This document shows positions 405 to 18,066 of a DNA stretch of 64,000 nt, in pieces (positions within the stretch are counted from its first letter, which is position 1; every line of letters starts with the position of its first letter). The stretch is from Balamuthia mandrillaris. Lineage: Eukaryota. The DNA lies in NCBI GenBank assembly GCA_031835245.2, contig JAVKOQ020000007.1:124001-188000 (forward strand), read 5' to 3'. The notes under the pieces were generated by a model. That model was not told the origin of the DNA. It searched no databases and saw nothing but the letters and a program-made list of their open reading frames with translations. Both the position numbers and the translations under genes were made by a program.

Positions 405-1577
405 TTACTTGTTTTCCTGAACCCACTGGTACACTTCGTCGCTTCCGCAGCAAAGGGTATCGGGGTTCCATGGACAGCCATGCGCCCTCAACCACTTCAA
501 CACCTCCAATTGGCCCGCCAAAGCGGCCCTCTCGCAGGTGCTCTCGTCCCAAGGGCACCCGTTCTCATGCGCCCATTTCAGCACCTTTAGGTTACCTTGC
601 TCAGCAGCGCCACTGCAGGTCTGCTCGTCCCAAGGACAGCCGTTCTCCCTTGCCCACTGCAGCAGTTCCAAATGGCCGTTCTCAGCGGCAGCAGCGCATG
701 TCCACGAGTCCCAAGGGCAGCCTTGTTCTCTCAGCCACTTCAAGGTCTCCACGTGGCCAGACCTGGCCCCGTGGGTACAAATATCGAGCGAGTCCCAAGG
801 GCAACCGTTCTCTCTTGCCCATTTCAACACCTCCAACTGTCCGTTGGACGCCGCCATCTTGCAGGTGACGTTGTTCCAAGCGCATTTGTTGTTTCGTGCC
901 CACCGAAGCACTTCCAAGTGGCCGTTGCGGGCTGCGTTGTGGCAAGTCCACTGGTCCCAAGGACAGCCTCTCTCCCTGGCCCACTGCAGCACTTCCAAAT
1001 GGCCGTTCTCAGCAGCGTAGGCGCAAGTCCTTTCCGTCCAGTTGCATCCCTGTTGCAAACGTGCCCATTGGACCACATGCAAATGGCCATGGAAGGCAGC
1101 AAAGTCCATCACAAAGTACAAGAAGGCTATCTTCCAATCCGGTCTTTGTCGCATCCACTTCAGCCCTTCCAGATGGCCTTGCTTTGCCAGCACGGTGGCC
1201 ACCTGCCGCTCCTGCCAAGGACAGCCGTACTCCACGGCCCACTTGAGGACCAACAGATGACCGCCCTCGGCAGCCGCCAAGGCGGTCTGGCGATCCCAAT
1301 GACAAGCCTGTTCCAGGCGGAGCCACTGCAGCACGTCCAGCTGGCCCTGCCCGGCGGCTGCCGCGCAGGTTTCATGGTTGGGCACCAAGCCGTTGCCCAC
1401 CGCCCACTGCAGCAACGCCAGCCGGCCGCACAGGTACTTGACGGAGAGGCGGTTGCGCAGGTGGACCGGGGAACAGCGGTACCAGCGGTTGCAGGTCCGG
1501 GCCGCCACGCCCACCGCGTGCTTGGGTAGCTGCGCCATGATGAGCGCCACCAGCTCTTCTGGCAAGTCGTCCTCCAT
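405..1577 (-). CDS. F-box + ankyrin-repeat protein (Acanthamoeba/Pandoravirus-type GCPWD repeats), intron-less
   Basis: N-terminal F-box-like LPEELVALIMAQL..ARTCNRW followed by ~25-aa repeats AA..GHLEVL.WARENGCPWD. Likely ATG at 1577 (MEDDLPEE). Confidence 0.85.
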   Translation of the reverse strand: MEDDLPEELVALIMAQLPKHAVGVAARTCNRWYRCSPVHLRNRLSVKYLCGRLALLQWAVGNGLVPNHETCAAAAGQGQLDVLQWLRLEQACHWDRQTALAAAEGGHLLVLKWAVEYGCPWQERQVATVLAKQGHLEGLKWMRQRPDWKIAFLYFVMDFAAFHGHLHVVQWARLQQGCNWTERTCAYAAENGHLEVLQWARERGCPWDQWTCHNAARNGHLEVLRWARNNKCAWNNVTCKMAASNGQLEVLKWARENGCPWDSLDICTHGARSGHVETLKWLREQGCPWDSWTCAAAAENGHLELLQWARENGCPWDEQTCSGAAEQGNLKVLKWAHENGCPWDESTCERAALAGQLEVLKWLRAHGCPWNPDTLCCGSDEVYQWVQENK

Positions 1578-2035
1578 TTCTTTTTCTTCGCTCTCTCTCT
1601 TGTTAGCGTTACTGTGCTTTCCTTTCTTTCTTTCTTTGTGTGGTGGTGAAAAGAACAAATGGAGCGTAACACGACTTGGCAGGTTTAAAATAGCTGGTTT
1701 TTGGTAAGATTTTCCCCGCCGCGAAGACCACCTTAAGACCCAACAGCCTCCTTAAAGGTGAAACACCCGCCAAGCGTGGCGTGAATAAGCGAAAGGTTGT
1801 GTGTTTTCTCTGGAAATGCCACGAGTTTGCTGAAAATGGACCAAATAAGGGAGGTATCCTTAGCACGAGGTAACGGATTCATTTAGTTCACGATGGGCCC
1901 TTTTTTGGTTGCCGACCTGGGTGCTAGGATATGATCTCTATTTTTGTCCTCTCCAAGGCAACCGGAGAAATGTAATAGCTTTCTTGGAAGGAAACAGATC
2001 GAGAATGAAACCACATTTCTCTATCCTGTTTCACT

Positions 2036-2303: not shown

Positions 2304-5300
2304 AGAAAGAGAATAAATAAGGAACGTCATGGATCAAACAGGTGGGACGACAGAACAAACCCTTGCTTCCTCAGATGTCAGCGCATGGAAATCTGGTGGT
2401 ACGTCCACCTTGGTGGCCACCATTATTTTGGGTACCCCATCTAGCGCGTAACGCTCCACTTCAACATTCCAGTTTCTGAACCAATAGCGCAGGGTAAATC
2501 CAAAAGGAAGAAGGAACAGAAGAAGAGGAAGAAGAGAATAAACAAGAAGAACAAGAGGGGCAAGAAACGAGAACAAGGAGAAAGCTTTGAACAAAGCACA
2601 AGAAGTAGCACGTACCTGACATTTTCAAAGCTTACACGATCAGTTACGTCGTAACACAATAACACACCACAAGTTCCACGGTAGATATAACGGTTATGAT
2701 TGTCGCCATAGAATCTTGGGTTCAGGTATGGTTCCCACTGTCATAAAGAGCAGGTGAGCAGAGAGCAGGTACATAATTTAGAAAGCAGAAGAGAGAGAAC
2801 CATTTGCACTTTGACTTTGTAGCTATCCAAATCAAGTGTACCCATTTTCTAAAGGTAATGATAAAGAATAGAGAAGTTAACAAAACCTTGTGACCTGTTC
2901 TTAAGACCGTCCACTACGCCGTACAGTACACAATACGGTTGCAGAATGACTTAGCGTGTTTTTTGTCCTGCTAAATTGTCCACTATCGCACCTAATTTAG
3001 CAGACAGAGGGCCGGTAGTGGACGGCGAGAGTGTCCGTTGGTTGTAGACAAAAAGTAGCCTTCATCCGGCACTCGCGGTCATATGCCGCCAGAGCATGCG
3101 CTTGAGAGTGCCGTTAAAGCGCTCAACAACGGCTTGTGAGTTTGGTTTGTATGGCTTTGATGTAATGTGTGCAATCCCATTCTCTTCCATGAGCAGATGA
3201 TTGACGAACTCTGCGCCGTTATCTGTTTGCAGGATCTTAGGCTGCTGTTCCGCCAATAATGGCCGCAAGTGTCGGGCCACATTCGCCGCAGTCTTCTTGG
3301 TGATTGGGAACGCCCACGCATACTTGGTGAACACATCGATAGCCGTAAGTATGAAATTGTACCGGTCGTTAAACCCGCGCAGTGCACTGACATCCACGAG
3401 ATCCGCTTGCAGGCGTTCGTGCGGCGCCTTCGCCCGAATAGGTTGTTTCACTGCAATCTTACGAATCGGCTGATGTAATTGGTTAGTATGATTCCGCCGC
3501 AGGTATGCCGCAACATCCCGCCGAGATATGCCGATGAATAACTCCACAGCGCGTTTATATAACTTATCCCGGCCGTATGCCATTGTCGCCGGGCTTGCCA
3601 TCAGTTCGCCGAGCACACGATCGATAGCGCCGGCGGGTACTACAATCCGGCCATCATACTTCGCCACAATGGTGTCTTCTGTTCCTTCTTGTAGCCGGAA
3701 GTGCCGCCACTTATCGGCAAAACCCCGCTGTTCTTTCGGCAGGAGATCCGGCAAAGTATTTGTTTGTAAGTATTCCAGCCCGGCATCATATGCTTCATCT
3801 GTGAATTTGTACTGAGAGTAGTCTTTCATTCTCACAGTATACTATACTAAGGCCGACATAAAACGATTACACGTTATCGGTTGACAGACAATATCGGCCA
3901 GTGGATATAAGAATTTCAATGTAGCCTTCGTCAGAATAGATTATATGACCATAGATTGACGAAGGCTACATATTTCGGGGAAGGTAGATAAACTTAGTAA
4001 ATTGTTATTATTACCTCTTCTTCTGTGCTTTGCCGCAAGAAGGCTACTCTCTGGCCAAAAAAATATTTACATTGATGTATGCTTACTACCGCCGCCAGAT
4101 TTACATCATTCGCAGTCCCTTACCGGACTGTTTCTTCTTCATTGAGGCGCCTAGAAAGCTATCAAACTGTGCGCGACTCTTTGGTGTTGGCTTCTTTGTT
4201 GCTTTGGCACTTGGCTTACTCTTTGCCGGCTTCTTCTTACCGGACCCGATCATTCGCATACCACTGCCAGACTTCACAGTGCTACGCACGTTGGCTCCGC
4301 CAACCCCCAACAACTCGCGCACTTTGCCTTTCGCAGTGGACTTCGCACTATCAGCTAGTTGTTCGATCTTGCCGGTTGCAATAGGTTTGATAACGCCTAA
4401 CAATTCCTTTCCCAAAGTACCAACTAATCCTTTAGGATTCAGCGCATTCTTGCCTTTTCTTATTAACTTCTTCAGGAAGCCCCCGCGCTGTAAGTGCGCC
4501 GGACCATACCTGTGTAGGTTTCTACGGTCTATCAACATTGTTTTCGCCGGTTTCACTAAGTATTATACTACAGGCGACATAAAAACAGATCATGTAAAAT
4601 AATCCCGCACAATAGCTTCATTGGCCGCTGTTGGCTCCTGATCGAACACAGTGATGATATCTGCCGGCGATCTACCGGCGTCTCTTTGCTGAATGTAGAG
4701 GACACAGTAATAGCCGCAGAGAACTGTTTTGTCCGTTTGTGTCTGTGTTGAAGGATACAATATTGTGCGCTTGGGTGCAATCCGCCGCAGAAATCGTTCG
4801 AGTTCTGGTGGTGGCACTACTCCGTATGAATCATAGTACTCAACGAATGGGCTGCTCTTCTCGCAATATACAGCGACCCAATGCGAACCCGGTTGCGAGC
4901 GTTTGTCATAGTTGAAGATAAAACTCGCCGGTAAGTTGATTTCTTTTGTCTTCACCTTCTTGGCTTCATCACGGGCAAACACGCCGGCAAATGAAGGCGA
5001 ATCAACCAACATTTCTGTCAACTCAAAGTTGCTCAGAGCGTGGAACCTTTTTTTTTACTGCATTTGCCGCATCCACCGGCTTGCGAGCCCATTGTGTATC
5101 CTAGACGTAATCCTCTGCCTTTCCTTGGCTTTATCTTTCTTCTCACATTACCCTTGCCCGCATTTCCAGTCCCTTTGGGACGTCGAGCACCCGACCCAAA
5201 CAGTTTACCCAATGCGCCGGTTGCCGTATCAATGCCTTTATCAATTAATTTATCAGCAACACCCGCGAGAATCTATTAAAGGCCACTAATACTGGTAAGA

Positions 5301-8300
5301 ACCCACCAACTTGTGGCCGCATCTTGGTCAACTGTGTTTTGCTAAGCCGCAATACTAATCCCCGGTTATCTTTCGCCGCACGCTTTAGCTTCTTCGCCTG
5401 TGTTTTCGTAAGCAGCAGGGCGGCATTAGGTTCAGCTTTCAGTTGTTTTCTTGTGAGTCGAATGTTGGCGCCATGTTGCGCCTTGATAGCCCTCCCTGTG
5501 GGCTTCTGTTGTTGTTCGCTGAGGAAAATCGGTATGTTGTTGTAGTTCGCAGACATTGTTGTTGTATGCGTTGAGAATACACAGTATACTATACCCGACA
5601 AAAAAAATATTGGATTGTGATATTTAGCGGCGATCACAGAGGATTTGCAGACGCTCTCCATCCCCTTTATAATCGAGCTCAGCCTCCGCCTCAACAACTG
5701 CTAACACGACATAGGAAGTAGGTAAAGCATGCGTGCCAATAGTGGCGCCTGGTGTGAACTCAAGGACCATATCCGCAGCAGTTTCATATGAGAATGCGGC
5801 ACGGTCTCCCTTGCTGTATCCGCAATCGAATACAAAGATAGGGTATATGTTTTTGAAGTCTTCATAGGTGACGATACTACCAGACTCCGTATCATTACAA
5901 TGTCTTCCAGCTTGCAAGAAAGATCTGTACAATCGGATATAGTTTTCGTTAGAAGCATGGAAGAAAGGTGCGTACTCAGTCTTGGGCACAGGTTTGCCGT
6001 TAACCATCAGCCGCATATTCTGCATATTCAGAGTATCATATACTGCCTTGTTGATGTTCTGCACGGCTTGCCTAGTGCCGGACAACCGTGCGTTATCTTG
6101 GAACACGACATAAACGCGCTTTGGCTTACGAAGATTGCTACTAAGCAGGAATCTTTGCCGGCCAGAACCACTCATAGGTGAGCTCTGGATAACAAACAGG
6201 TCATTGTAGACGACAGTCTTAGTGGCACCCGCTGCGAGCTGTTTATCCAGCATAGTTTGTACAGAGAGAGAAGCCTGCAATTGAGGAATCCATAAGTTCA
6301 GTTCATCAACTTTGATACGCAAATCATCAATAGTTGCTGTGCCGTGCCTGTTGTTCCTTGGATAGCCAAATTATGTCTGTTGAGAACCAAAGCCAAAGTA
6401 TGACTAGTGCCGCGCCAGACAGATTTGTGATGATACCAGAAGCGGCAAACATCAGCAATAGGTAAGAGTAGAGTGTGAGTAGCACTTGCAAGGTTTTTAT
6501 CGGCCCTGATCTTAAATGATTCAGAATACTTTGAATTTCTTTCAGTTAGCTCTGTGCCGTTATCATTGAACTCCTTTATTTCTACATCAGCACCAGTATA
6601 TGCCTCACGATAGAAACCAGTTCGGGAGCCTAGAGACCGGAGATTGTCTTCACTCCAACAGACCAGATTCATAACATTTGCGGCCACACCAACGGATGTC
6701 ACGTCGCTAACTGTTTTGTTATCAATACTCCATTTGACACGCTCGAAGAGATGCCAGCCGCCGTTAGTAAGAGCCGCCACATGACCAGCAGTCGCAACGC
6801 CGGCGGTTGTGGTAAGTGCAGTGCCATTGGATTGAGTTATGCTACATTTCACTTCCAAATATGCCTCGTTAATCAGCAGCCATGAGGACTTATCGTTCAC
6901 ACGAATAAGGATCTCACTGGTTGGCACGCCGGTGGAAGTGCCACTAGTGGTATAAGGATATCTGACGTCTTCACGATAGGTGGTAGTCTCATCAACGACA
7001 TCGCTGCTGAAGAGATCCCACTCTTGGGTCATTCTCGGGTCGAGTTGTTTCACGGACATTGTTTACTTTACTGAATGCAGGTACTATACTAAAGCAGCCA
7101 ACAAAGAAAAAAATCGTAATATTTACAGGTAGGCTTACCCAACTCACCCAAGCGGGCAACAATGCTGCGGGTGGCAGTGTTAATATCTTCTTCTGTTATA
7201 TCCGCGTGGCTTGTCTTACCGGCTTCAACCATCCGCAGGTAGACTTGATAGCCAACGTTAAGTATTTCACAAAATCACGCTTGGCTTCACGCCGAGGGCA
7301 TTCAAGATATATGCTTGTTTGCTGCCGGCTTCATCAAACACATGCTTCTTTTTATGCGGCTTCTGGATATGGTTGGAGAACATAATCGTTTTGAGTTGCC
7401 ACACAGTAAGGTTTAATTTCTCACATATTTCATTATTGCAAAGGTTCTGCCGGCATAATTCCCGGACTTGATCAATAATTTCCGTCATCTTTGCTCTGAA
7501 CTAATACACACTATACCAGACATAAAAAAATCAATAAATAAATAATTATTGAAAGCCCGCGCCATATACCACATAGTCTATCTTTGCGGCTAAGTCTGTT
7601 GCAAGTTTAGCAAGGCCTCGGATACGCGGGTGGCCCTTCAATAGTTGTCCTGCGTCCTGAATAATGAAGTTCTTTAACTCTGCTGTTAGCATTCCGTTGG
7701 CCGCAAGTATGTCATGTATGAACAGTTGGCAATTGTATCTAGTGGCACTATACAGCCACATCCGGCGTTCTCCCACGGCTTTCAAAGTGCGGGTAAGCAT
7801 TGCGGCAAGCGTTGGCCGGCCTCTCACATTAACCTGCATTGCGCCGCCATTATGCGGGTGTAGGTCTGCTTCACTGGCCAGCCGAGCGCTTACCACTTGA
7901 TTCTTCTCAAGCCGGATAACTTCGCCGGTTTGGAGCCGAAGAACAAGATACAAATGATATAGATTATCGTAATTCAACTTGCGCTGCATTCGGGATAAGT
8001 CTCCTAGTGTTAGGATATTGCCAAGAGTAGTTATTGCTTGTTGGATTGGGCTTCGCACAACGTACATTGAAGTAATCACCGTGTTTCCTTTGGGTTCCAC
8101 AAGCCGGCGGGTTGCCGGTGGAGCATTCAACCTGAGGCCGAACATCTGCCGCAGTGTTGTCTTCACTGCATTGTAATTATCAACGAGACCTTCGCCTTCC
8201 TGTAGGTTAGTTGGATGATTTAGTAGTAGCGATTGCTTGGAATTACTCGCTTTTTTTTTAACCTGCCACCACGCACAGATAGGAACTTCGACTTCCTTGC

Positions 8301-11300
8301 GCCACAGCTTCCGCACTTTGTTAACTGATATCGCCGGCCGTTTGCCGCTACTTTCACAATTGGTTTGCCGGAGTCGGCCGTCTTTCGTTTACAACGGGGA
8401 CAGTACGTAGTCATTGTTGTTCACTTTTTCTTTGTCTGGTATACTATAGGAGTGAGAAAACCAACGAACGAAAAATAAATGACTGATTACAACATTGGGC
8501 AATGGCATATTGTTATCAACACTAATAAGAAGGTTGAGAACACGCCAGAGAGCCGCCGGCTTGTGCGGAAGTTTACGCGGGTTATACAGGATGTGTTCTC
8601 GGAGGAGAACGCAGATGATATGCTTAGAATATTCCAACGCGGGAAGAACCGTGATCCAATCTATTCAATCCAACTAACTTCATCAATTGAGTGGAAATCA
8701 GGCCGGCAAAAGCGGCTGCATGCGCATATTCTTATTTTCATTACGTTTGCCAAAGACAGAAGCTGCGGTTGACATATGACCGGCTGCGGGGATCTGTGGA
8801 AGAAGCATTAGGTATACCGATACATTTCAATGCTAAGTTCTTGGATAAGAAACAAACATTAGAGCAAATGCAGCAGAACCAAATCAACTATGTCCTCAAA
8901 GAATACTTAGGCATAGATAGGAAGAAGAAAGAAGAAGGAGAATAATCGAATATTTTTTTGCCAAGATTTATTTGGCGGCTTAAGTATAGTTGGAGTGAAT
9001 GGAGTTCTCGGATGAACAAGTGAGGAAGCTCTTGCAACATATGTTGGATTCCTGGGGTAAACCAGCGAAAGAGGTAAGTGAAGAAGTTGTTGTTGAACCA
9101 GAACCTATTGCGGAACCATTGCCGGCGGTAAAGAAAGCAGTGCGAAAGACAACAGCCGGCAAGAAGGCGCCGGCAAAGAAGAAGGCTCCGGCGAAGAAGG
9201 CGCCGGTTAGGAAAGCCGCAAGTAAGCGAGCTCCGGCGAAGAAGAGTGGTGCTGCGGCGAAAAAAGAGAAGCCAGTAAGTAGACCGCGAGCCGGCGAGTT
9301 ATCCAAGTATGTCTTCCAACATTATGCGGAGGAGTTTGATAGTGATGACGACAATGTAGCCGAGGATGAGAGCGGTGAGGAGGCCGAAGAGTAAGAGGTA
9401 TGTTATTTTTTTGTGCCGGCTGAGAGTAGCCTTTGTTCGGCAAAGCAAGGAGAATAAGAGATAATAACTGTTTATGACTTCTACCGGCCTTCTTCGGTTA
9501 GATGTAGCTTTCGCCAATCTATGGTTATATAATCTGTTCTGACGAAGGCTACATTGAAATTCTTATATCCACTCGCCATATGGCGAAGGCTACATTTATT
9601 GAAAAAAAGATAACCACCCACCATTTATTGAAAAAGTTATGCCCACTACAATAGAAAGCTACAATCACCTATTTGTTCACTGTACCAGCTAAGCTAGTAT
9701 TTGTAGCTTCCGTCGCTGAAGAACATCTTGTCGACTAATTCTTGTTGCAAACCATGGCGTTCCATAGCTCGCCTTCTCACCATCATAGGGTCTTCAGGAC
9801 GAGTCCCCGGCGCCGCTTCTTCCCTCGTAATCTGAGGCGAACTCGGCGGCGAGTGTACTGAGATAGCATCCAACCCGGCGGTAAGAGACTGCATCGGGCT
9901 TGCAGGTTGTGCCGGCCTACCTTCTGGTTCTTCGCCTTCTTCTTCCTCTTCTTCGTGCTTTACTTTCTCTCGTTGAGAAACCAGCGGAGGAACGCTTTCG
10001 TCATCCGGGAGAGGCGCCGCGTCTGGTTCGCCCTCGAAAGCAAACTTAGTGAAGTTATCGGCTTGCGATTCGCTCTCCTCTTCATCGGCTTCTTGCGCCA
10101 CTTGCTCTTCCTTCGTGCGGTCCTCTTCATCTTGTTGCAGGAGATTAACGCCTTTGATCGTCGGGTGAGCGCCGCTCTTCAGGTTCTTATCAAACTCCTT
10201 CCATTGCTCGTGGTTCATCTCTTGGTGTACCATCGCCACAGTCGGTTGCAGGCTAACGTTAGCTAAGCGGATCCTCTTCTTTTCTTTGCCAATGCGCTTC
10301 CAAAAGCTTGCATGCTCCGGGTCTCTGCTAACATAGTCTCGGAACTTGCTGGCATACTTTGTCGTGTAAGTACACCAACTGCACGGCATATAGATGATCG
10401 CTGGGTAGCGCCTAAGATCATTGTAGTAGCTAACATATCGGCGGACCATAGAATGTGAAACTATCGGCGTAGGGCCGCCGCTGAGGAAGATAGCCAGGCT
10501 CCTAGCGCGGGCTGGATCAGTCGTCCTAAGCTTGGCCACTAGCGCCACGTAATACCCAACTTTCGAGGCATAGGACTACTAGACTCCTTGGCAGCAAAAA
10601 CAACAATATTAATCGTGTTGGCCAGAGTTTGCGAATCATTCCTCACCATAGCTAACTTCTTGAAATCCGCCATAATCGCCTCGTCGCTACCCGGATCATC
10701 CTCGAGGGCCGGCGGTACAACGTCCAAATAAGTGATGTCCCCGGCTGCCATTGTACGTTCGACATACTTGTACTGCTCGTTGTACCAGCGCATGAAGTCG
10801 TGGTCGTCGTCGGACATAGCAGCGTGAGAACGTTTCTTCTTGGGCTTTGGCTTGTCTTTCTCACAGGCCTGTTCGATGAGCTCAGGCGTCAATAGGTTCA
10901 GCATATTGTCAATACCGTCGGTGCCGAGGAGTTCGCAAAGCACGCTAAATTCTGCGTCGTTTAACTTGCGGAGCATCTTGAAGATCTCAGCGGCGTTTGC
11001 CTTCTTTCGGCCGACCTGTCGTCCTTCCATATTGTGTGTTGGTTTGGGCTGCGAAAATTCTCCTGTCACAAAAAAGCCACGTGATAAATTTTGGCGACAT
11101 GGGAAACCTCCATTTTTTAGGACTCCTCATAGTTATATATAATTCTTGTCAGGAAAGACAGGACGACGGTCAAAATGGCAGAGGAAACCTGTGCTCCAGC
11201 AAGTGGGCAAACAGCTCATGAAAAGGCGGCTCACATAGCAGGGGCTTACAACACAAAGATAGCAGAGGTTCACACAACCACTTCACTAAAGGTTGCGGAG

Positions 11301-12682
11301 CTGAACCGTGAAGCCTTATTGCGCAGCGCTAAAATCAGTGCGAGAGCAAGATACTTCCAAGGCACGGCTACATTAATAGGTGCAGTTGGAGTGCTTGTAG
11401 GGCTTGTTTATCGATTACGAGAGGAGTCAAGCTCCTTGAAGATGGACCTTGAACACACAAGAAGTGATCTCGAAGGACTGAAGCAAAGATACATACTCTT
11501 GAAGGACCATAGAAGTTTTCCCAAGCCAGAAGAAGACAACAAACCACTTCCTAATGAAAAGGACGTGGAAAACGCTTATCAATAAGCTACCAGTAGTAGC
11601 TTAAAAATAGCCACTTCACTTTGTAGCAACTGTCATCACACCATTCTTCGCCCTCCACAACCGAAGTGTTTTCTCTTTTTCTTTTTTTCTATTAAATTCT
11701 TTTTCCTCTGACCTACTTGTTAATATTAAGACCGTCCACTACGCCGTACAGTACACAATACGGTTGCAGAATGACTTAGCGTGTTTTTTGTCCTGCTAAA
11801 TTGTCCACTATCGCACCTAATTTAGCAGACAGAGTGCCGGTAGTGGACGGCGAGAGTTCTTTCGTCTTTGTCAAGCAAATATTGAGAGGTACGGTCTGCG
11901 TACTGGATCAGGTGGCGAAGCTTGGTGCTGATACGTATCGGTGAATGTGCCATCCTGGAGTCATTCAAAAACAACAAAGCGAGAGAGAGAGAGAGAAGAA
12001 GAAACATGTAAGTTTAAAAACGGAGCTAGATTAATGCGTTGTATTATCATACGTACGATCATCCTTGTGGCTAAAGATGTCTAATAACAAACGGTTGGTG
12101 TAAGTAAGGTAACTGTCAAAAAAAAAACACAGCTTCACGCCAGCACACTAAACAAGAACTATGCGTTTAATGTGGTTTGACATACCTTGCCAACGCCAAG
12201 GTCGCCAATAATTGCCAACTTCACGAGAAAGTCATAATCGCTAGTAGTTCTATCTCGTGGTCTCACATAAGGCCGCAGTCCTTGTTCTGCCCGTGCCTTT
12301 CTGCGTTTCTCTCTTTGTTCAATGAGTCCTTTGCGGTGATCCAAATAGATTTGTTTCCATTGGCCATCGTTGTTGCTAGTTGCCGTCAACTTGGATGGAG
12401 CCACCTTTGCTAGAAATGGTTTCCAAAGTCTTATAGAAAAGACAAAGCAAACAAGTTGGGTATTGAGGCTTAAAAGAGGCGGAGAAGGAAGCTATGACGT
12501 ACATAGGCTCGCTGCCAATGCGACGAAAGTGTTTGCAGACATGGGTTACGTGAAGGAGGTCATTTACACTAGTGAGGAAGCTGAAAGCGTACAATAACAT
12601 CTCGTCTGGAAGCCGGCGAATACGTACGTAAAGAAACCTGTTATACAGCAAAGCAAGAGAGGGAAAGAGAGAGAGAGCGAGG

Positions 12683-12714
<32 letters not shown>

Positions 12715-12916
12715 TAAAGAAGGGTTAAAGAAGAAAAAAAAAAGGAGAAAAGCCAGGAACAAAACTGTCGATGTAGTCAGCAATGTGAACACATTGGCAT
12801 TCTAGGGCAATGTCGGAGGCAGAACCATTGTTACCCACAGCGCTGACGTCCGCTCCGTTCTGCACCAACAGTTGCACCACCAACGGGCATTTGGAGAACG
12901 GCACAAGGCAAGGCAA
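2036..12916 (-). CDS. Host ankyrin / F-box / divergent Rab-like GTPase-domain protein, multi-exon, interrupted in an intron by the 9-kb element; 5' end uncertain
   Basis: Exons join in frame across GT-AG introns. ANK (VVQLLVQNGADVSAVGNNGSASDIA) and F-box (RLPDEMLLYAFSFL..VCKHFRRI) precede DYDFLVKLAIIGDLGVGK|TSLATRMI|DGTFTDTYQHQASPPDP|[element]|KMGTLDLDSYKVKVQM|WEPYLNPRF..YRGTCGVLLCYDVTDRVSFENVR|..VPKIMVATKVD..|..FAETSAKENTN. Confidence 0.8.
2902..3030 (+). repeat. Left direct terminal repeat (LTR-like, ~129 bp)
   Basis: Identical to 11727-11855 except G3010 vs T11835. Subterminal inverted repeats CCGTCCACTAC (2907-2917) / GTAGTGGACGG (3015-3025) and an internal stem CTGCTAAATT (2968-2977) / AATTTAGCAG (2994-3003). 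Confidence 0.95.
3062..3829 (-). CDS. Retroviral-like (rve, DDE) integrase, Polinton-type; C-terminus appears truncated
   Basis: LQADLVD...LTAIDVFTKYAWAFPI...LQTDNGAEF...PYKPNSQAVVERFNGTLK gives a complete D-D-E triad. Polinton-like N-terminal GRDKLY..ISRRDV..YL..QLHQP. The ORF stops shortly after the catalytic E. Confidence 0.93.
   Translation of the reverse strand: MKDYSQYKFTDEAYDAGLEYLQTNTLPDLLPKEQRGFADKWRHFRLQEGTEDTIVAKYDGRIVVPAGAIDRVLGELMASPATMAYGRDKLYKRAVELFIGISRRDVAAYLRRNHTNQLHQPIRKIAVKQPIRAKAPHERLQADLVDVSALRGFNDRYNFILTAIDVFTKYAWAFPITKKTAANVARHLRPLLAEQQPKILQTDNGAEFVNHLLMEENGIAHITSKPYKPNSQAVVERFNGTLKRMLWRHMTASAG
3900..3971 (+). repeat. Internal inverted repeat, left copy (72 bp), itself containing a 15-bp-stem hairpin
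   Basis: Reverse complement of 9502-9573 with 4 mismatches. ATGTAGCCTTCGTCA (3919-3933) pairs perfectly with TGACGAAGGCTACAT (3957-3971). Confidence 0.9.
4101..4538 (-). CDS. Basic virion core-like protein with putative adenain cleavage sites
   Basis: Lys-rich ORF with QRGGF followed by an amphipathic segment, plus GSG/GKG motifs. Lies next to the protease gene. Confidence 0.6.
   Translation of the reverse strand: MLIDRRNLHRYGPAHLQRGGFLKKLIRKGKNALNPKGLVGTLGKELLGVIKPIATGKIEQLADSAKSTAKGKVRELLGVGGANVRSTVKSGSGMRMIGSGKKKPAKSKPSAKATKKPTPKSRAQFDSFLGASMKKKQSGKGLRMM
4590..5054 (-). CDS. Adenain-like cysteine protease (virion maturation)
   Basis: FAGVFARDE...FIFNYDKRSQPGSHWVAVY...EYYDSYGVVPP...QTQ....CGYYC shows the H-D-Q-C order of adenovirus/Polinton proteases. 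The frame is open to 5054 (ALSNFEL) with no ATG before 5012. Confidence 0.9.
   Translation of the reverse strand, partial: KKRFHALSNFELTEMLVDSPSFAGVFARDEAKKVKTKEINLPASFIFNYDKRSQPGSHWVAVYCEKSSPFVEYYDSYGVVPPPELERFLRRIAPKRTILYPSTQTQTDKTVLCGYYCVLYIQQRDAGRSPADIITVFDQEPTAANEAIVRDYFT
5033..5556 (-). CDS. Polinton-type basic core protein (LLLTKTQ..LSKTQ..VGGFL), frame break near 5275
   Basis: MSANYNN..LLLTKTQAKKLKRA..LRLSKTQLTKMRPQVGGFLPVLVA. The -1 frame continues ILAGVADKLIDKGIDTATGALGKLFGSGARRPKG..KGRGLRL..CSKKKGSTL* ending at 5033. Confidence 0.6.
5624..7059 (-). CDS. Double-jelly-roll major capsid protein (Polinton/adintovirus hexon-like), frame break near 6320-6370
   Basis: ORFs 6298-7059 and 5624-6322 join to ~470 aa. 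Motifs EAYLEVKCSI, NGGWHLFERVKWSIDNKTV, KPKRVYVVFQ, MRLMVNGKPVP, Y.RLYRSF and TYEDFKNIYPIFVFDC are typical of Polinton-family MCPs. Confidence 0.85.
7267..7488 (-). CDS. Small putative helix-turn-helix protein; probably continues in another frame toward ~7100
   Basis: NNEICEKLNLTVWQLKTIM looks HTH-like. The +1 frame after KPSVI reads EILNVGYQVYLRMVEAG.. The element's shared upstream motif precedes the ATG. Confidence 0.4.
   Translation of the reverse strand: MTEIIDQVRELCRQNLCNNEICEKLNLTVWQLKTIMFSNHIQKPHKKKHVFDEAGSKQAYILNALGVKPSVIL
7546..8259 (-). CDS. Permuted NlpC/P60 (LRAT/PPPDE-like) papain-fold hydrolase
   Basis: His motif (LYHLYLVL..LEKNQ) lies upstream of YSATRYNCQLFI, resembling the LRAT-family Y...NCxxF. 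No ATG at the start of the frame; joined to the upstream Zn-ribbon ORF through an A9 tract. Confidence 0.55.
   Translation of the reverse strand, partial: KKKASNSKQSLLLNHPTNLQEGEGLVDNYNAVKTTLRQMFGLRLNAPPATRRLVEPKGNTVITSMYVVRSPIQQAITTLGNILTLGDLSRMQRKLNYDNLYHLYLVLRLQTGEVIRLEKNQVVSARLASEADLHPHNGGAMQVNVRGRPTLAAMLTRTLKAVGERRMWLYSATRYNCQLFIHDILAANGMLTAELKNFIIQDAGQLLKGHPRIRGLAKLATDLAAKIDYVVYGAGFQ
8220..8414 (-). CDS. Small Zn-ribbon protein (DUF5679-like)
   Basis: YCPRCKRKT...NGRRYQLTKCGSCGARKSKF matches the CxxC..NGR..CxxCG.KS.F pattern. Confidence 0.7.
   Translation of the reverse strand: MTTYCPRCKRKTADSGKPIVKVAANGRRYQLTKCGSCGARKSKFLSVRGGRLKKKRVIPSNRYY
8479..8945 (+). CDS. HUH-superfamily rolling-circle endonuclease (Rep-like), frame break near 8755
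   Basis: Motif I-like WHIVINTN, motif II E.....KRLHAHILI, and motif III INYVLKE (YxxK) in the -1 continuation 8691-8945. About 155 aa, with no helicase domain. Confidence 0.75.
8999..9394 (+). CDS. Histone H1-like Lys/Ala/Pro-rich protein with acidic tail
   Basis: AVKKAVRKTTAGKKAPAKKKAPAKKAPVRKAASKRAPAKK repeats and an acidic C-terminus. Confidence 0.65.
   Translation: MEFSDEQVRKLLQHMLDSWGKPAKEVSEEVVVEPEPIAEPLPAVKKAVRKTTAGKKAPAKKKAPAKKAPVRKAASKRAPAKKSGAAAKKEKPVSRPRAGELSKYVFQHYAEEFDSDDDNVAEDESGEEAEE
9502..9573 (-). repeat. Internal inverted repeat, right copy (72 bp)
   Basis: Reverse complement of 3900-3971 (68/72 identical; the 37 bp at 9537-9573 are perfect). Confidence 0.9.
9694..11030 (-). 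CDS. Element protein of unknown function (ORFs 10539-11030 and 9694-10548, probably one gene with a frame break near 10575)
   Basis: The ORFs overlap and the -1 frame reads SYASKVGYYVALVAK. Contains a degenerate CxxC finger (CSWCTYTTKYASKF) and an acidic low-complexity tail. Confidence 0.5.
11175..11585 (+). CDS. Element protein with one predicted TM helix and a coiled coil
   Basis: ATG-initiated 136-aa ORF with hydrophobic ATLIGAVGVLVGLVY followed by heptad-like LKMDLEHTRSDLEGLKQRY. Confidence 0.5.
   Translation: MAEETCAPASGQTAHEKAAHIAGAYNTKIAEVHTTTSLKVAELNREALLRSAKISARARYFQGTATLIGAVGVLVGLVYRLREESSSLKMDLEHTRSDLEGLKQRYILLKDHRSFPKPEEDNKPLPNEKDVENAYQ
11727..11855 (+). repeat. Right direct terminal repeat (LTR-like)
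   Basis: Same-orientation copy of 2902-3030, followed immediately by TSD GTTCT(T). Confidence 0.95.
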
Positions 12917-13083
12917 AATGGGAGAGTCTTGTCCTTCTCCGGAGTGGACGTACTTAGCTTGTGCCCGTTTGCAATTTCCCAGGGGGAATCAAATCACACT
13001 ATCGGCCAACCAGAAATCAGAGATTCTGTTTCTTCTTTCTTATTCTTTTGCCTCCATGCAAGGCCGTGCCGGACTTTGTGTTC

Positions 13084-13172
<89 letters not shown>

Positions 13173-13377
13173 CTCTTCGTTCACCCGCGTTCATCAGTTC
13201 CTCTCATCACCGAACATAATGGATCAGAAAAAAAATATTATGATATATTAGTATTTGTGTTATTTCCATTGCTCTTGCAATACATTTACAAAACTCAAAG
13301 CCCAGCCAAAAAAAAAATATCTTTCTTTATCACAAAAATAAAATAAAACACCAACACCAACACCAACACCATCAAAC

Positions 13378-14512
13378 TCAAACTTGGTCTTCTGCAGAAG
13401 TCGAAGAATCTGAGGAAGTCTCCTTATCATCATCAAAGTCATTCTTCTTCTTGCTCTTCTTGCTCTTCGTATTCAGGTTCTTTAACTGCTTTCTCAATCC
13501 ATCGTTCATACCATTCCTAACATCGCCGTCAAACGCTTCGTCGTCTATCGACTTGTCTCCTTCCGCAACAAACTCACTCCTGTTAGTGACCCTGAACAAG
13601 AGCCCAGCCACAGCGGACGCAAAGAAGGGGCCTAACCAATAGACCCAAACATACTCAAACTTGTCGCCACCTCGATCGATAGCATTCACAATGATGGCAC
13701 CAGTCATCACTGCTGGATTGAAACCGCCTCCAGATATTGGCATATGCTCTGTTTCAGAGGTTTAGAAAGAGAATAGATGATGAAAGAAAGATGAGTCCAA
13801 AGCGACTCAGAGAATAATACGGACGTCCAACAGCGACAGCACCAGCGGTAATGCTGAACCCGATGGCCAGACCGTAAAAGGAGTTACCCACTTGGGTCCG
13901 TGTGGTGGCAGTTTGAATGACGGCGTTGATGAGGAGGAAGGAGAAGAAAAACTCCGCTGCAAATGCTTGTCCAGCGTTGAAACCGCTTCCAGGGGTGACG
14001 GAGAATGTCTGATAAGAAATAGCCCAGTAGGTCTATTTGTTCCAAAACACACAACGTAAACAAGCTGTACAAGTTTAAAAACAAAACAAAAAAAAATACA
14101 AAAAGGAACGTTACCAATGCGCCAAGAAATGCTCCGGTGAATTGCGCACACCAGAAACACACAAGGTAGAACCATGTAAGCTTTCCACGTCCGGAAAGAA
14201 ACACTCCCAAAGAAACCGCTATTTTTTGTTAACAAAAATAGCGTTAAAGAAAGCAAATACAGAATAAAAACAACAATAAAATAATAAAAAGAGAGAAAAG
14301 GTACAAGGGTTGAAGTGTCCGCCAGATATATGCCCACCGGAATAAACCAGTATCATGAGCGTGGCCCCAATGCTGAAAGGAGCCAATTCTCCCCCGGAGA
14401 GAACGGACAAACCGATGGACAGCATGAACATAAAAGTTCCCACCAGTTCCACGATGAACGGAGCAACCTTTCGGCAAACTCGGTCCAGCTGCTCCGGCAT
14501 GATGTAGGCCAT
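13378..14512 (-). CDS. Aquaporin / MIP channel, multi-exon
   Basis: VELVGTF, GGHISGGHFNP(S) and PISGGGFNPAV signature motifs. Confidence 0.92.
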
Positions 14513-14999
14513 TTGTGGTTCTTCTAAAAGTAAGTGTAAAGAGTGAAACGTATGTGACAATAGCAAACAAAAACTGAAAAAAAAAAGCTAGCCGTGTTAA
14601 CAAGTTAAAGTTGGAACGGAATACAAAAGACAGGAGTGGCAAAACACGAAAACATCGTATGAAAAAGGGACTCATATTCTCCGAAGAGACGTCAAAACAA
14701 CGTTATTCCACCTAGAAAGGTTTGTTACAATTGGTTTTAATCACCTATTCAAAACTGTGAATTAATAATTAATGAACCTTTATAGGTGATTTGTAACCAC
14801 ATCGAACGCACCTGCGAACAACCCGGCAACGAACCAAATGGACAAAACAGCGTTACTCTGATATTCATTTTTTTTTTCCGTTGTTTACTTCAGTTTTTCT
14901 TTTGCTTTTCTATTTATCCTATTTGTTTGTTTGTTGTGCTTTGTTTTTGCAAATAGATCATAATAAAAAAAATGAACATTTAAAAGAAGGTTTAGAAAT

Positions 15000-15049
<50 letters not shown>

Positions 15050-15074
15050 AAAGGGAATGGCGCAATCACTACCA

Positions 15075-18066
15075 TCAAGAACAAATAGAACGAAGGTAAT
15101 CGTTGATGAATTGTTGATAGTGCTCCGCAGAGAGACCAGCCGCCACCGCTTTGTCATACAGCTTATGAGCCTGCATTTGGATGTTGCTCTCTTTGCCGCC
15201 CTCCAACAAATAGTTCAGCTTCGCTGCAACCGCCGCGCTCACAAAGTATCTTTAGGGGTTTTTTTTTTCGTGAACGTTTTGTGGCATGAAGAGGAAAAAA
15301 AAACCAAACAAACAAACAAACAGAAAACAAAAAACAAAAACAATGGATCAAAAAAAACAGAAACAGCAAAACTAAAGAGAATCATTGTTGTACCTTTTGT
15401 TAACATCAGCCAGCTGCTGTTGCAACCGTTCCATCTGTTCCTGCTGCTTCTTTGCTTTCTGCTGCTGCTCCGTTTTTTCCTCCTCGAAAATCTTTTCTTT
15501 GACGTCCATCGACAAAACAGTTTTTCTTAACTCCAACTCCAATTCATGTTTGCTCTTCAGCGCTTCCTCCAGTTCTTTGCGAAGTATTTCTGGGTCGTGG
15601 CAATCGCTCAACGACAAAGAAGCAAGAAAAGAGGAGGAAGAGGAGGAAGAAGATGATGAGGAAGAAGATGATGAAGAGGAGGATGATGACGATGATGAAG
15701 AGGACGAAGCAGAAGAAGGAGAAGGAGAAGAGGAAGTCAGAGGAGAGATTAAGTCTTTTGCAGAATGAGCGAGAGCAGCGGTGAGAGAGGAGGACGGTTG
15801 GTGGTCACGAAGCCGGTGTGTTTCCTCTGTCATGTGATTTAATTGTGCTGTTAGGCTTGCTATTTCCACTTTTTGCTTTCGCTCTTTGTCTATATGAAAC
15901 GAGTTAATAAATGAAAAAAAAAGATAACAATCAGATAAGAAGAAAGAAACCTTGAAGCTGAGAAATAGTTTCTTGAGCAGCAGCTAACTCTGTCCGCTGT
16001 TTGCGCAAGACCTCTTCCACGTCTTCTTCGATCCGCCTTGCATTTTTCTTGAGTGCAATAGCTTCCTCTTCGTGCTTCCGTTCTTTTTCTCTCATTGTCT
16101 AATTTGCAAATAACACAAAGAGGAAACCGAAAGAAAGCAAAAAGGTAAGTCGGCGTTGTTGTTTGTGGTTAGTGTGAGTTTGTAAAAACCTGAAGTTGGT
16201 TATCTTTTGACTTGATGATCGCCAAACAATCTTGCAGATTGCCTCTAAGTTGTTCAGATTCACGTCTTTCTCCCTCTAAGTTGTTCACCAATATCTGGAT
16301 TTGTTGTTGCAATTCTGAAAAGAGACACAGATGAGATAAAGAGATAGAATGAGAGGGTGCAATAGTACGTAAGATGATAAACTGCGCTTGTTGGTCTACA
16401 GCCACAAGTTGTTCCTGCGTAGCATCCTGATGATGAGGCTGCTGTTGATGATGTTGCATGCCAGCATGATAGCTGGATCCCAACGCAGCTGGCGATTGAC
16501 TAGCTAGCTCATTATGAGGAGGGCTTAGAGAAGAAGGAGGAGAGGGAGAGTGCCTCGAAGGAAAGGACCCTCCCGACGATGGAATGCTTTGATAATAAGC
16601 GACATCGTAGAAAGAATGACGTGGCGCTTTTCTTCTATTTCTGGAGTTATTGTTCGTTTGCTGCGCGGTTTTTGCAGATTGAGTCCCACCTTCAGAAGCT
16701 GTCGCTGCGTTTTCGTTGTTATTAGTTTTGTCATTAAAGTTGTCGCTGTTGATGTTGTTGTTGCTCGCTGTATAATGAGTTGCAGCTCGAACATTTCTGC
16801 TTTCTCGTCGCGAATTTTCCTCCTCTTCCTCCTCCAAGAAGGAAGTCGGTTTGCCAACCATCGGACTGGAAAGACTACGAACGAGAACATGAGGAGAAGA
16901 ACCAGAAGAAGACGACGACGATGACGAAGGAGATGGTGGTGAGGAGGGTCTGTCGATTGTTCTCCTCCCCACAACACCAAAACTCCCTACAACGCTTACA
17001 CTGTTTCCTCCACTTTCACCGGAACTGCCGCTTCCACTTCCACTGGCAGAGGTGTGTCGATTGATGAGGCTGCCACCACCAGCCGGCATGGCAGACGCCA
17101 ACAGCTCGTTGGCTCTCATGTGCACGGTCTGGCGTTGCAGCCGGATGGAGCGCTCCACGTCCTCCTTCTGCGACATGAACAACTCGCGGTACTTCTTTAT
17201 CCCATCCAACCAGTAGAGCATGTCCACCTCGGAGGAGGCCACCAGCTTGTAGTCCCTGTCCTTAGTGGCTATTACGAAAGGCCATGAGGTCTGTTGCTTA
17301 CTGCTGTTGCTTTGGTTGCTACCACCTCCGGTGCTGCCTGGTGGAATGCCTAACGCCCCTTTGGAGTAGCATTGGCTGTAGATGCGTGTGCATTGCTCCA
17401 ATGCGATGAAGCCCAGTTCCTGTTGTCATCGTTTTGTTGTTTTGTCACGAGGTTGAAGAAGAAGAAGAAGAAGAAGAAGAAGAAGAAGAAGAACAAGAAC
17501 AAGAACAAGAAGAAGAACAAGAAGAAGAACAAGAAGAAGAACAAGAAGAAGAACAAGAAGAAGAAGAACAAGAAGAAGAAGAAGAAGAAGAAGAAGAACA
17601 AGAAGAACAAGAAGAAGAACAAGAAGAAGAACAAGAAGAAGAACAAGAAGAACAAGAAGAAGAAGAAGAAGAACAAGAACAAGAACAAGAAGAAGAACAA
17701 GAACAAGAACAAGAAAAAGAACAAGAAGAACAAGAACAAGAAGGAAGAAGAAGAAGAAGAACAAGAAGAAGAACAGAGACAAAGACAAAATTGAAGAAGA
17801 AGAAGAAGACGAAGAAGACGAAGAAGAAGAACAACAACGAGAACAGAGAGAATCCATAGAAAGAAGAAGAATCGGTCTTTCAGTACCTCACTTTTAGGAG
17901 ATTTGCTGTAGGAAAGTTTGCCTTTCGAAAGCCAAAACCACCGCTTCTTGAAGGTGCGCACCAAGCCCTTCGCTCCTAACTTGTACAAATAACCTTCCAA
18001 TTGGTAGAGCTTTTGGTTTGTTTTGTGTTGTGGGAGATCGATCGGGAATTTTTTAAAAAAATCCAT
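15075..18066 (-). CDS. PH-domain + coiled-coil protein, multi-exon
   Basis: LEGYLYKLGAKGLVRTFKKRWFWL..ELGFIAL..FVIATKDRDYKLVASSEVDMLYWLDGI is a PH domain. Downstream exons are Ser-rich and coiled-coil. Confidence 0.8.
17455..17835. repeat. (AAG/AAC)n microsatellite in an intron of the PH gene
   Basis: About 380 bp of GAA/CAA triplets. Confidence 0.95.

Follow-up and report, generated by a model that had tools for sequence, protein, structure and literature searches.

A frame-broken mriyavirus-type HUH endonuclease gene is the only replication-type gene detected in a 9-kb integrated capsid element of Balamuthia mandrillaris

A 64,000-nt stretch of the Balamuthia mandrillaris genome (assembly GCA_031835245.2, contig JAVKOQ020000007.1, positions 124,001-188,000 of the forward strand; hereafter the window) carries an integrated element of 8,957 bp (2901-11857), in which a capsid gene is accompanied by a stand-alone HUH endonuclease gene broken into two frames. 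The encoded protein is supported as a rolling-circle-type initiator by its family, its predicted fold and its conserved His and Tyr residues. The reading preferred here, to which a probability of roughly 55% is given, is that this is a mriyavirus-type HUH protein and that the intact form likely starts rolling-circle copying of the element with borrowed polymerase and helicase. This reading is based on family, predicted fold, His/Tyr conservation, synteny, a shared upstream motif and the ends of the element, together with the failure to detect a polymerase, helicase, primase or ATPase.

Identification of the HUH gene

The three motifs of rolling-circle initiators, reported in canonical order by a first-pass annotation of the window, were located by coordinates in that order. 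Motif I (WHIVINTN, 8503-8526) and the HUH motif (HAH within RLHAHILI, 8719-8727) were both in the open reading frame (ORF) 8479-8772 (97 aa), and the YxxK motif (YVLK within INYVLKE, 8889-8900) was in the overlapping stop-to-stop frame 8691-8945. The single -1 break reported near 8755 was reproduced by tblastn with intact homologues, which placed a -1 shift between 8757 and 8760 (the break itself being put at 8755-8759): an intact homologue aligns first to 8479-8757 and then, after a change of frame, to 8760-8909. A profile of seven homologues, built without any Balamuthia sequence, was run against 1,516 frames of the window and detected the frame 8479-8769 with an E value of 1.8e-16, against 6.6 for the runner-up. 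The observation is real and beyond chance, and the HUH reading of 8479-8945 is confirmed. The C-terminal half of the gene alone was not detected by this profile. As a chance test, a loose hydrophobic-HxH-hydrophobic pattern was counted across the six frames of the window and occurred three times.

The register of the catalytic Tyr varied among the alignments, some of which paired the family Tyr with the later Tyr of KEYL; the first Tyr (YVLK) is favoured because the environmental stand-alone homologue P0007 (148 aa) has only that one. The sole database match to the first HUH frame was the Balamuthia gene model P0001 (99% identical), in which the frame break is bridged by an intron that drops the HUH motif, so that the public model of this locus is an annotation trap. 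Structure comparison with P0001, which is without the HUH strand, returned generic ferredoxin-like folds only.

Relatives and predicted fold of the HUH protein

An unbroken Balamuthia paralogue (P0006) was found on two contigs. It passes the break site without a gap and is identical to the window protein at 82% of residues 1-93 and at 56% of residues 95-144. Further homologues were obtained from searches (P0008 and P0009) and from two pattern scans, L002 and L003 being 2 hits among at least 596 candidate stretches and L004 and L005 being 2 of 138. HxH was retained in 8 of the 9 homologous domains and YxxK in all 9; YxxK, unlike motifs I and II, was absent from all search patterns.

The AlphaFold model of P0006, made from an alignment of eight rows, had predicted local distance difference test (pLDDT) values of 68-95 in ten-residue blocks over residues 1-150, and in this model a ferredoxin-like/RNA recognition motif core with a C-terminal Tyr helix is present. 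The first match in Foldseek was 2X3G, ORF119 of SIRV1 (E 2.2e-4, probability 1.00). The same structure was placed first by VIA-align (Z 7.6, 104 aligned residues, root-mean-square deviation 4.9), with an alignment that reached residue 151, most of the folds tied with it ending near residue 123. The earlier claim of a rolling-circle initiator, with its proposed checks by structure prediction and by His/Tyr conservation, is thus supported by the family profile, the fold match and the conserved residues.

The family was narrowed down by the company that the relatives keep. A profile of just three domains from L004 and L005 detected the window frame (E 6.8e-5). L004 encodes an A32 ATPase and VLTF3, L005 has a long HUH-ended protein besides its HUH gene, and in L002 the HUH gene has a RuvC-like neighbour (E 0.023); L004 and L005 were labelled gamadvirus-like by gene content. 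In the passages of Yutin et al. (PMC11253617) covered here (all published sources are cited for such passages), A32 ATPase, VLTF3, RuvC and a second long HUH-ended protein are given as mriyavirus hallmarks, and 2X3G is given as the top structural match of the mriyavirus HUH protein. Because the contigs of its relatives show these hallmarks and the 2X3G match is shared, the window protein is assigned to the mriyavirus type. A tree of 10 domains grouped the window protein with P0006 and P0007 (100/98), and the position of this group among the other domains was not resolved.

Several observations were made on the contigs of the relatives. In L005, a 1,749-aa protein with a terminal HUH domain (10502-15751) directly follows the short HUH gene. 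In L003 (1-1356), the HUH homologue is flanked on each side by a small ORF whose C-terminal part is hydrophobic, a layout resembling the membrane-type genes of L004 and L005. Structure comparison with L003 returned unnamed viral clusters at 0.93-0.94, one of them with REP_ORF2-G2P in 11% of its members, and Rep_1 was the first structure row, below the naming bar. Nothing relevant was returned by PDB sequence searches with the N-terminal half of the HUH protein and with a three-sequence profile, by tblastn among phages and plasmids, or by IMG/VR scans with two early HUH alignments.

Ends, repeats and shared motifs of the element

The features of the element are collected in Table 1. The terminal repeat named in the first-pass annotation is present, corrected here to a direct repeat of 132 bp, with a start-to-start spacing of 8,825 bp between its two copies. 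The integrated unit has ends like those of a long terminal repeat (LTR) element, because its repeats are direct and carry 11-bp inverted arms near their ends; the repeat is regarded as a candidate origin and integrase end. No family of miniature inverted-repeat transposable elements was seen for the 132-bp unit within the window, where only the two copies occur. Among random flank pairs, 1,225 of 200,000 gave a bracket equal to the GTTCTT duplication. The hairpin previously named at 3900-3971 is also present, as 3896-3971, but the single site was incomplete, an inverted twin lying at 9502-9577. The terminal repeats and the hairpins fold better than shuffled sequence. Nothing relevant was found by a hairpin pattern scan of IMG/VR or by Rfam over 2800-12000.

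A GTATA motif was found before 7 of the 12 ORF starts examined, including those of the HUH, major capsid protein (MCP) and integrase genes, and the near-palindromic site of the HUH gene is shared, on the opposite strand, with the Zn-ribbon gene. The pattern GTATASTR had 10 matches (6 sites) in the element and none in the other 55 kb, with 0.88 expected. Since this upstream motif is shared with the integrase and capsid genes, the HUH gene is taken as an integral gene of the element. The host's depletion of CpG and TpA is absent throughout the element (CpG observed/expected ratio 0.97-1.22, against 0.70-0.78 in the host). A further motif, AAGGCTAC, occurs seven times in the element, including position 3055. 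A second motif family, AGTAGCCTT...CGGCA (3042-3071, 4026-4051 and 9422-9447), was observed after the last gene of each transcription run; it stands in the opposite sense at the cut point of the integrase and has AAGGCTAC in common with the hairpin arms.

The hairpins raise another explanation, to which little credence is given: two nested units, in which a 5.7-kb virus between the inverted hairpin repeats (3896-9596), replicated by a rolling-hairpin mode as in rudiviruses and parvoviruses, would be inserted in an integrase transposon. The inverted 76-bp repeats enclose the HUH gene and all the capsid-type genes, and no other folds are as strong as their 15-bp hairpins. The genes beyond 9600 are without the shared upstream motif, and the virus that provides the best structural match has a linear genome, the ends of which are hairpins. 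However, the integrase has the same upstream motif outside the inverted repeats, where AAGGCTAC is also found (3055), the inner repeats (93%) are more diverged than the outer ones, and the dinucleotide composition is similar in all three segments.

Table 1. Features of the integrated element (positions in the window)
Feature	Position	Strand	Remarks
Left direct terminal repeat, 132 bp	2901..3032		11-bp inverted arms near both ends, inner stem-loop; z -3.0
Right direct terminal repeat, 132 bp	11726..11857		131/132 identical to left
Target-site duplication GTTCTT, left, 6 bp	2897..2902		2-nt overlap with repeat end
Target-site duplication GTTCTT, right, 6 bp	11856..11861		2-nt overlap with repeat end
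Repeat A, 76 bp	3896..3971		Perfect 15-bp hairpin, 23-nt loop; z -6.5; possible second candidate origin
Inverted twin of repeat A (9502-9577, 93% complementary) and third copy of the 15-bp arm (9581-9595)	9502..9596		
T-rich and GTATA motif	8424..8449	+	40 nt upstream of HUH start, common to seven other core genes; putative promoter
Stand-alone Y1 HUH endonuclease gene, mriyavirus type	8479..8945	+	About 155 codons, two frames
rve (DDE) integrase, 255 aa	3062..3829	-	Pfam rve E 2.9e-12
Basic 145-aa ORF	4101..4538	-	No family match
Adenain-like cysteine protease	4590..5054	-	Pfam Peptidase_C5 E 0.032, below cut-off
Basic ORF with GGFLP motif, two frames	5033..5556	-	
Double jelly-roll MCP, two frames, break within 6298-6370	5624..7059	-	Pfam DJR-like_dom E 1.5e-4, below cut-off
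Small ORF, two frames, break near 7273	7089..7488	-	Weak helix-turn-helix-like match
Zn-ribbon (DUF5679, E 3e-5), then across A run a domain with H and NC motifs	7546..8414	-	
Lys/Ala-rich histone-H1-like ORF	8999..9394	+	Pfam HC2 E 5e-7, below cut-off
Overlapping pair of unannotated ORFs, possibly a single broken gene	9694..11030	-	No shared upstream motif
136-aa ORF, one hydrophobic stretch, unannotated	11175..11585	+	No shared upstream motif

Replication, packaging and other genes

A six-frame search of 2901-11857 turned up no Walker A, PolB-C, primase or DEAD motif, and three loose matches to the PolB-B pattern were all in short unrelated frames. Among the ORFs of the element, no replicase, ATPase, penton, VLTF3 or RuvC was found by Pfam, PHROGs and NCBIfam. 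The earlier statement that no superfamily 3 helicase is fused to the HUH domain holds, the gene stopping at 8945, and in this respect the protein differs from the Rep of single-stranded DNA viruses with circular, Rep-encoding genomes (CRESS). The statement that HUH is the only replication protein stands in part: it is the sole replication-type gene detected here, within a damaged copy that has two unannotated regions. The earlier proposal that HUH replaces pPolB is a conjecture; the viruses in which its relatives occur have no DNA polymerase.

Among the genes of the element, only rve clears its Pfam cut-off. The integrase ends about 20 residues past its third and last catalytic acidic residue, at 30 bp from the left repeat; no continuation was found in other frames, and the protein looks C-terminally cut. 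The product of 4101-4538 is likely a DNA-condensing core protein, judging from its composition, and the ORF 5033-5556 is presumably a core protein (pX-like). The protease ORF, which has no upstream motif of its own, is probably continuous with the ORF upstream across an A run. The MCP resembles by eye the two intact Balamuthia MCPs of a published table. The H/NC domain of 7546-8414, which we take to be papain-like, has a homologue in a virophage contig, and the H1-like ORF adjoins the HUH gene in the other Balamuthia copy as well. IMG/VR scans with the N-terminal half of the MCP and with the integrase returned nothing relevant. L006, obtained with the C-terminal half of the MCP, was rejected: its contig is phage-like, and the match, due to chance, falls within a gene that looks like one for ribonucleotide reductase.

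Frame breaks and related copies

Seven frame changes (six -1 and one +1) were seen or suspected in the element, and the copy as assembled is unable to make HUH or capsid. Two of the breaks (in the HUH gene and in the gene 7089-7488) are confirmed by tblastn with paralogues and one by visual comparison with published capsids, whereas the other four are inferred. Two of these changes are in A9 runs. These runs (5048-5057 and 8249-8258, minus strand) were observed to be the junctions at which an ORF without an upstream motif of its own follows another in the -1 frame, that is, core protein to protease and Zn-ribbon to H/NC domain, respectively, and they are either consensus errors or programmed -1 frameshift sites.

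Consensus errors are suggested by the single-base shifts, the lack of clear internal nonsense codons, the near-identical repeats and the absence of CpG loss. Against an assembly error, the gaps joining profile-contiguous Pfam pieces of host genes had the size of introns (56-213 nt) in all 10 cases, in a check of 120 of 234 candidate ORFs that were picked by length and hence biased to unbroken ORFs, and a host ORF of 1,097 codons is intact. On balance, a local assembly error is given slightly better than an even chance and decay falls a little short of one.

At least two further related Balamuthia copies were observed (records P0003, P0004 and P0006), the identity of the H/NC protein being 93% and 71%. 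The accession of P0006 is adjacent to that of the papain-like (H/NC) homologue, and the local gene order is kept in this second copy. Two intact, more divergent Balamuthia capsid genes are in an unnamed 'new' cluster 4 of a published data set, Balamuthia being without mention in the main text covered (PMC10120064). Because of these copies and published genes, the element is considered a member of a small family.

Damage also bears on the size of the element, which could be what deletion has left of a Polinton-like or Zora-like virus of larger size (15-30 kb) with helicase, ATPase and penton, the HUH gene being real and merely seeming to be the sole replication gene. This explanation, judged unlikely but to be kept in mind, agrees with the truncation of the integrase at a AAGGCTAC motif, with the up to seven frame breaks, and with the published HUH-bearing relatives, which in the passages covered are of 20-45 kb with ATPases and mostly with helicases (55/60 in mriyaviruses). 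However, both ends are intact, as is the target duplication, and the repeats are nearly identical, for which reason the unit was inserted recently, probably at its present size unless deleted later. Moreover, the core is tightly packed, with the shared motif upstream of each gene, CpG loss is absent, and the second copy has the identical local gene order.

Host genes around the element

The element is flanked by intron-rich eukaryotic genes. Small-GTPase-like coding pieces were observed on both sides on the minus strand (1864-2913 and 11860-12500), so the insertion may have hit or split a Rab-type gene. An intronless F-box and ankyrin-repeat gene with a 448-codon frame (405-1751, minus strand) is situated at a distance of 1.1 kb; giant viruses of amoebae commonly have genes of this architecture. 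The host genes recognized by Pfam at 12000-64000 were those of aquaporin, AMP-binding ligase, XRN, dual-specificity phosphatase, SSRP1, RasGEF, enoyl-CoA hydratase, kinase, RhoGEF, Ras, ABCG-type transporter, eIF5A and M17 peptidase, and CT and AAG microsatellites are abundant in this region.

Proposed replication and points against it

Under the preferred reading of rolling-circle copying, the HUH protein would bind and nick a stem-loop, the simplest candidate being that of the 132-bp terminal repeat and the other candidates being the 15-bp hairpins, which together with the sevenfold AAGGCTAC motif may serve as alternative origin or binding sites. Strand displacement by enzymes of the host (in the amoeba nucleus) or of a helper virus would then proceed as far as the other direct repeat, and a further nick there, followed by ligation, would release a circle of 8,825 nt, the provirus not being excised. 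The copies would be packaged in the element's own capsid and matured by its protease, and an intact rve integrase would insert a linear form with terminal redundancy, duplicating 6 bp of the target. An HUH gene between two direct stem-loop copies is the layout by which rolling-circle replicons are released from a chromosome, as in geminivirus tandem constructs. Iterons with a stem-loop form a published model of a rolling-circle origin (PMC10653810).

The following points weigh against this reading. Nicking and replication by the HUH protein are predictions from sequence and model, and no canonical CRESS nonanucleotide was found in the repeats or hairpin loops. The conservation of motifs I and II in L002-L005 is partly due to selection, as the scan patterns contained them, and P0008 carries HAN instead of HAH. 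The gene model P0006 runs on into the H1-like gene downstream and is recorded as 'DksA'; both the name and the fusion look like annotation artefacts. The structural match is modest: its Z score of 7.6 is tied with those of unrelated ferredoxin-like folds (7.5 and 7.4), so that the fold alone would not decide HUH identity, which is decided by fold, motifs and family together. In Foldseek, E values better than 0.001 were also obtained for three ribosomal proteins, and Pfam REP_ORF2-G2P was weak (E 0.02-0.07, below cut-off) in 3 of the 9 domains tested. The GTATA pattern was picked after inspection, and its 10 matches are 6 sites, one of them intragenic. The regions 9694-11030 and 11175-11585 are without annotation, the single-sequence model of 9697-10575 being unusable (pLDDT 46). 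Genes may have been lost from this copy, because the integrase is cut short without continuation, and virion formation is unproven, since neither a penton nor a packaging ATPase was found.

The HUH protein might instead cut or join ends, in concatemer resolution, packaging or Replitron-like transposition, which is improbable. It is in line with this role that the function of mriyavirus HUH proteins is itself only predicted, that no ATPase is present for DNA cutting or packaging, and that eukaryotes have Y1 HUH transposases which lack a helicase and whose elements end in direct repeats (PMC10288648). Insertion, however, is already explained by the rve integrase and the fixed 6-bp duplication, and there is no other initiator in the element; in the passages of the same source, Replitron repeats are just a few bases long and the Replitron transposase has an extra oligomerisation domain (PMC10288648).

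Comparison with known systems

The element is like the Polintoviricetes (Mavericks/Polintons, Gosseviruses and VC35) in its rve integrase, adenain-like protease and double jelly-roll capsid, and a 6-bp target duplication is also made by Polintons. Polintoviricetes carry pPolB or helicase/primase fusions and an ATPase, whereas in the element the sole replication gene found is HUH, and the ends of the element are 132-bp direct repeats with 11-bp inverted arms in place of long terminal inverted repeats. With virophages, represented by the Sputnik-like contig L001, the element has in common the protein with the H/NC domain (35% identity over 200 aa, E 3e-34), a cysteine protease and the Zn-ribbon, which is a virophage core gene; unlike the element, L001 has helicase-like, ATPase-like, penton (V18-19) and recombinase-like genes and no HUH.

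Mriyaviricetes (Yaraviridae and 'Gamadviridae') likewise have an unfused small Y1 HUH protein with 2X3G as top match, no DNA polymerase, a double jelly-roll capsid and known amoebal hosts, and in the published model their HUH protein works with a host polymerase, HUH proteins being found also in Corticoviridae and Simuloviridae (PMC11253617). According to the passages covered, their genomes are of 35-45 kb with ATPase, VLTF3, RuvC and usually a separate helicase (55/60) (PMC11253617), and they lack integrases (bioRxiv 10.64898/2026.06.19.733378); the element has 8,957 bp, is integrated and has rve and an adenain-like protease, and none of those core genes was detected in it. The best hits of the Balamuthia capsid family are of the nucleocytoplasmic large DNA virus (NCLDV) type (PMC10120064). 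In Zoravirus (VC102) and VC218, HUH is found in about half and in 28%, and rve integrase in 57% and 62%, respectively, with direct repeats in some; these genomes measure 20-30 kb and encode an A32 ATPase, a minor capsid protein and Mriya48, and a core cysteine protease is not reported in the passages covered (bioRxiv 10.64898/2026.06.19.733378). The element lacks this size and the ATPase. Genomes of 15-20 kb without replication genes are described for VC40 (bioRxiv 10.64898/2026.06.19.733378).

Replitrons are also eukaryotic, with a helicase-free Y1 HUH protein, direct terminal repeats and proposed unwinding by the host, but as described they are transposons without capsid or integrase, with an HUQ signature, an oligomerisation domain and very short repeats (PMC10288648); the element differs in its HAH motif, the protein of about 155 aa and the separate rve integrase.

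To our knowledge, FLiP and phiCjT23 are without a packaging ATPase. These viruses possess small genomes of circular single-stranded DNA (7,642 nt in phiCjT23), a rolling-circle initiator and a double jelly-roll capsid, and occur also as integrated prophages; they belong to bacteria, the initiator of phiCjT23 has its match in a Geobacillus replication-initiation-factor family and not in that of the element, and neither protease nor rve is given in the passages covered (PMC9719478). Their likeness to the element is a functional analogy only. It is nevertheless conceivable, if rather improbable, that the element is a complete 8.8-kb double jelly-roll virus without a packaging motor, a eukaryotic counterpart of FLiP and phiCjT23, which may package single-stranded DNA circles peeled off by HUH between LTR-like repeats and be reinserted by the integrase. 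If so, it would have a DNA-only LTR life cycle and be among the smallest integrating varidnavirus designs in eukaryotes.

Significance of the element

Helicase-free HUH proteins in capsid viruses, and HUH together with rve, are already published for mriyaviruses and for Zoravirus/VC218, respectively. No description of a 9-kb HUH-rve-protease-capsid unit without ATPase and with LTR-like ends was found in the literature searched, which left most subscription journals outside its coverage, and the combination, size and ends of the element are new as far as these searches reach (further literature: PMC11296320, PMC11071296 and bioRxiv 10.64898/2026.10.13.758929).

Rolling-circle replication by a mriyavirus-type HUH protein is so far only predicted, and the literature passages covered give no origin for it. 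In the element, the nick site is testable with a few oligonucleotides, because the HUH protein has 150 aa, the element is small with defined ends, and there are only two kinds of hairpin. With the element, this HUH family, so far one of NCLDV-like viruses, is extended to a Polinton-like gene set that includes protease and integrase. If the other copies have the same size, the element would stand for a minimal design of integrating capsid element, one that has no polymerase, helicase or packaging ATPase.

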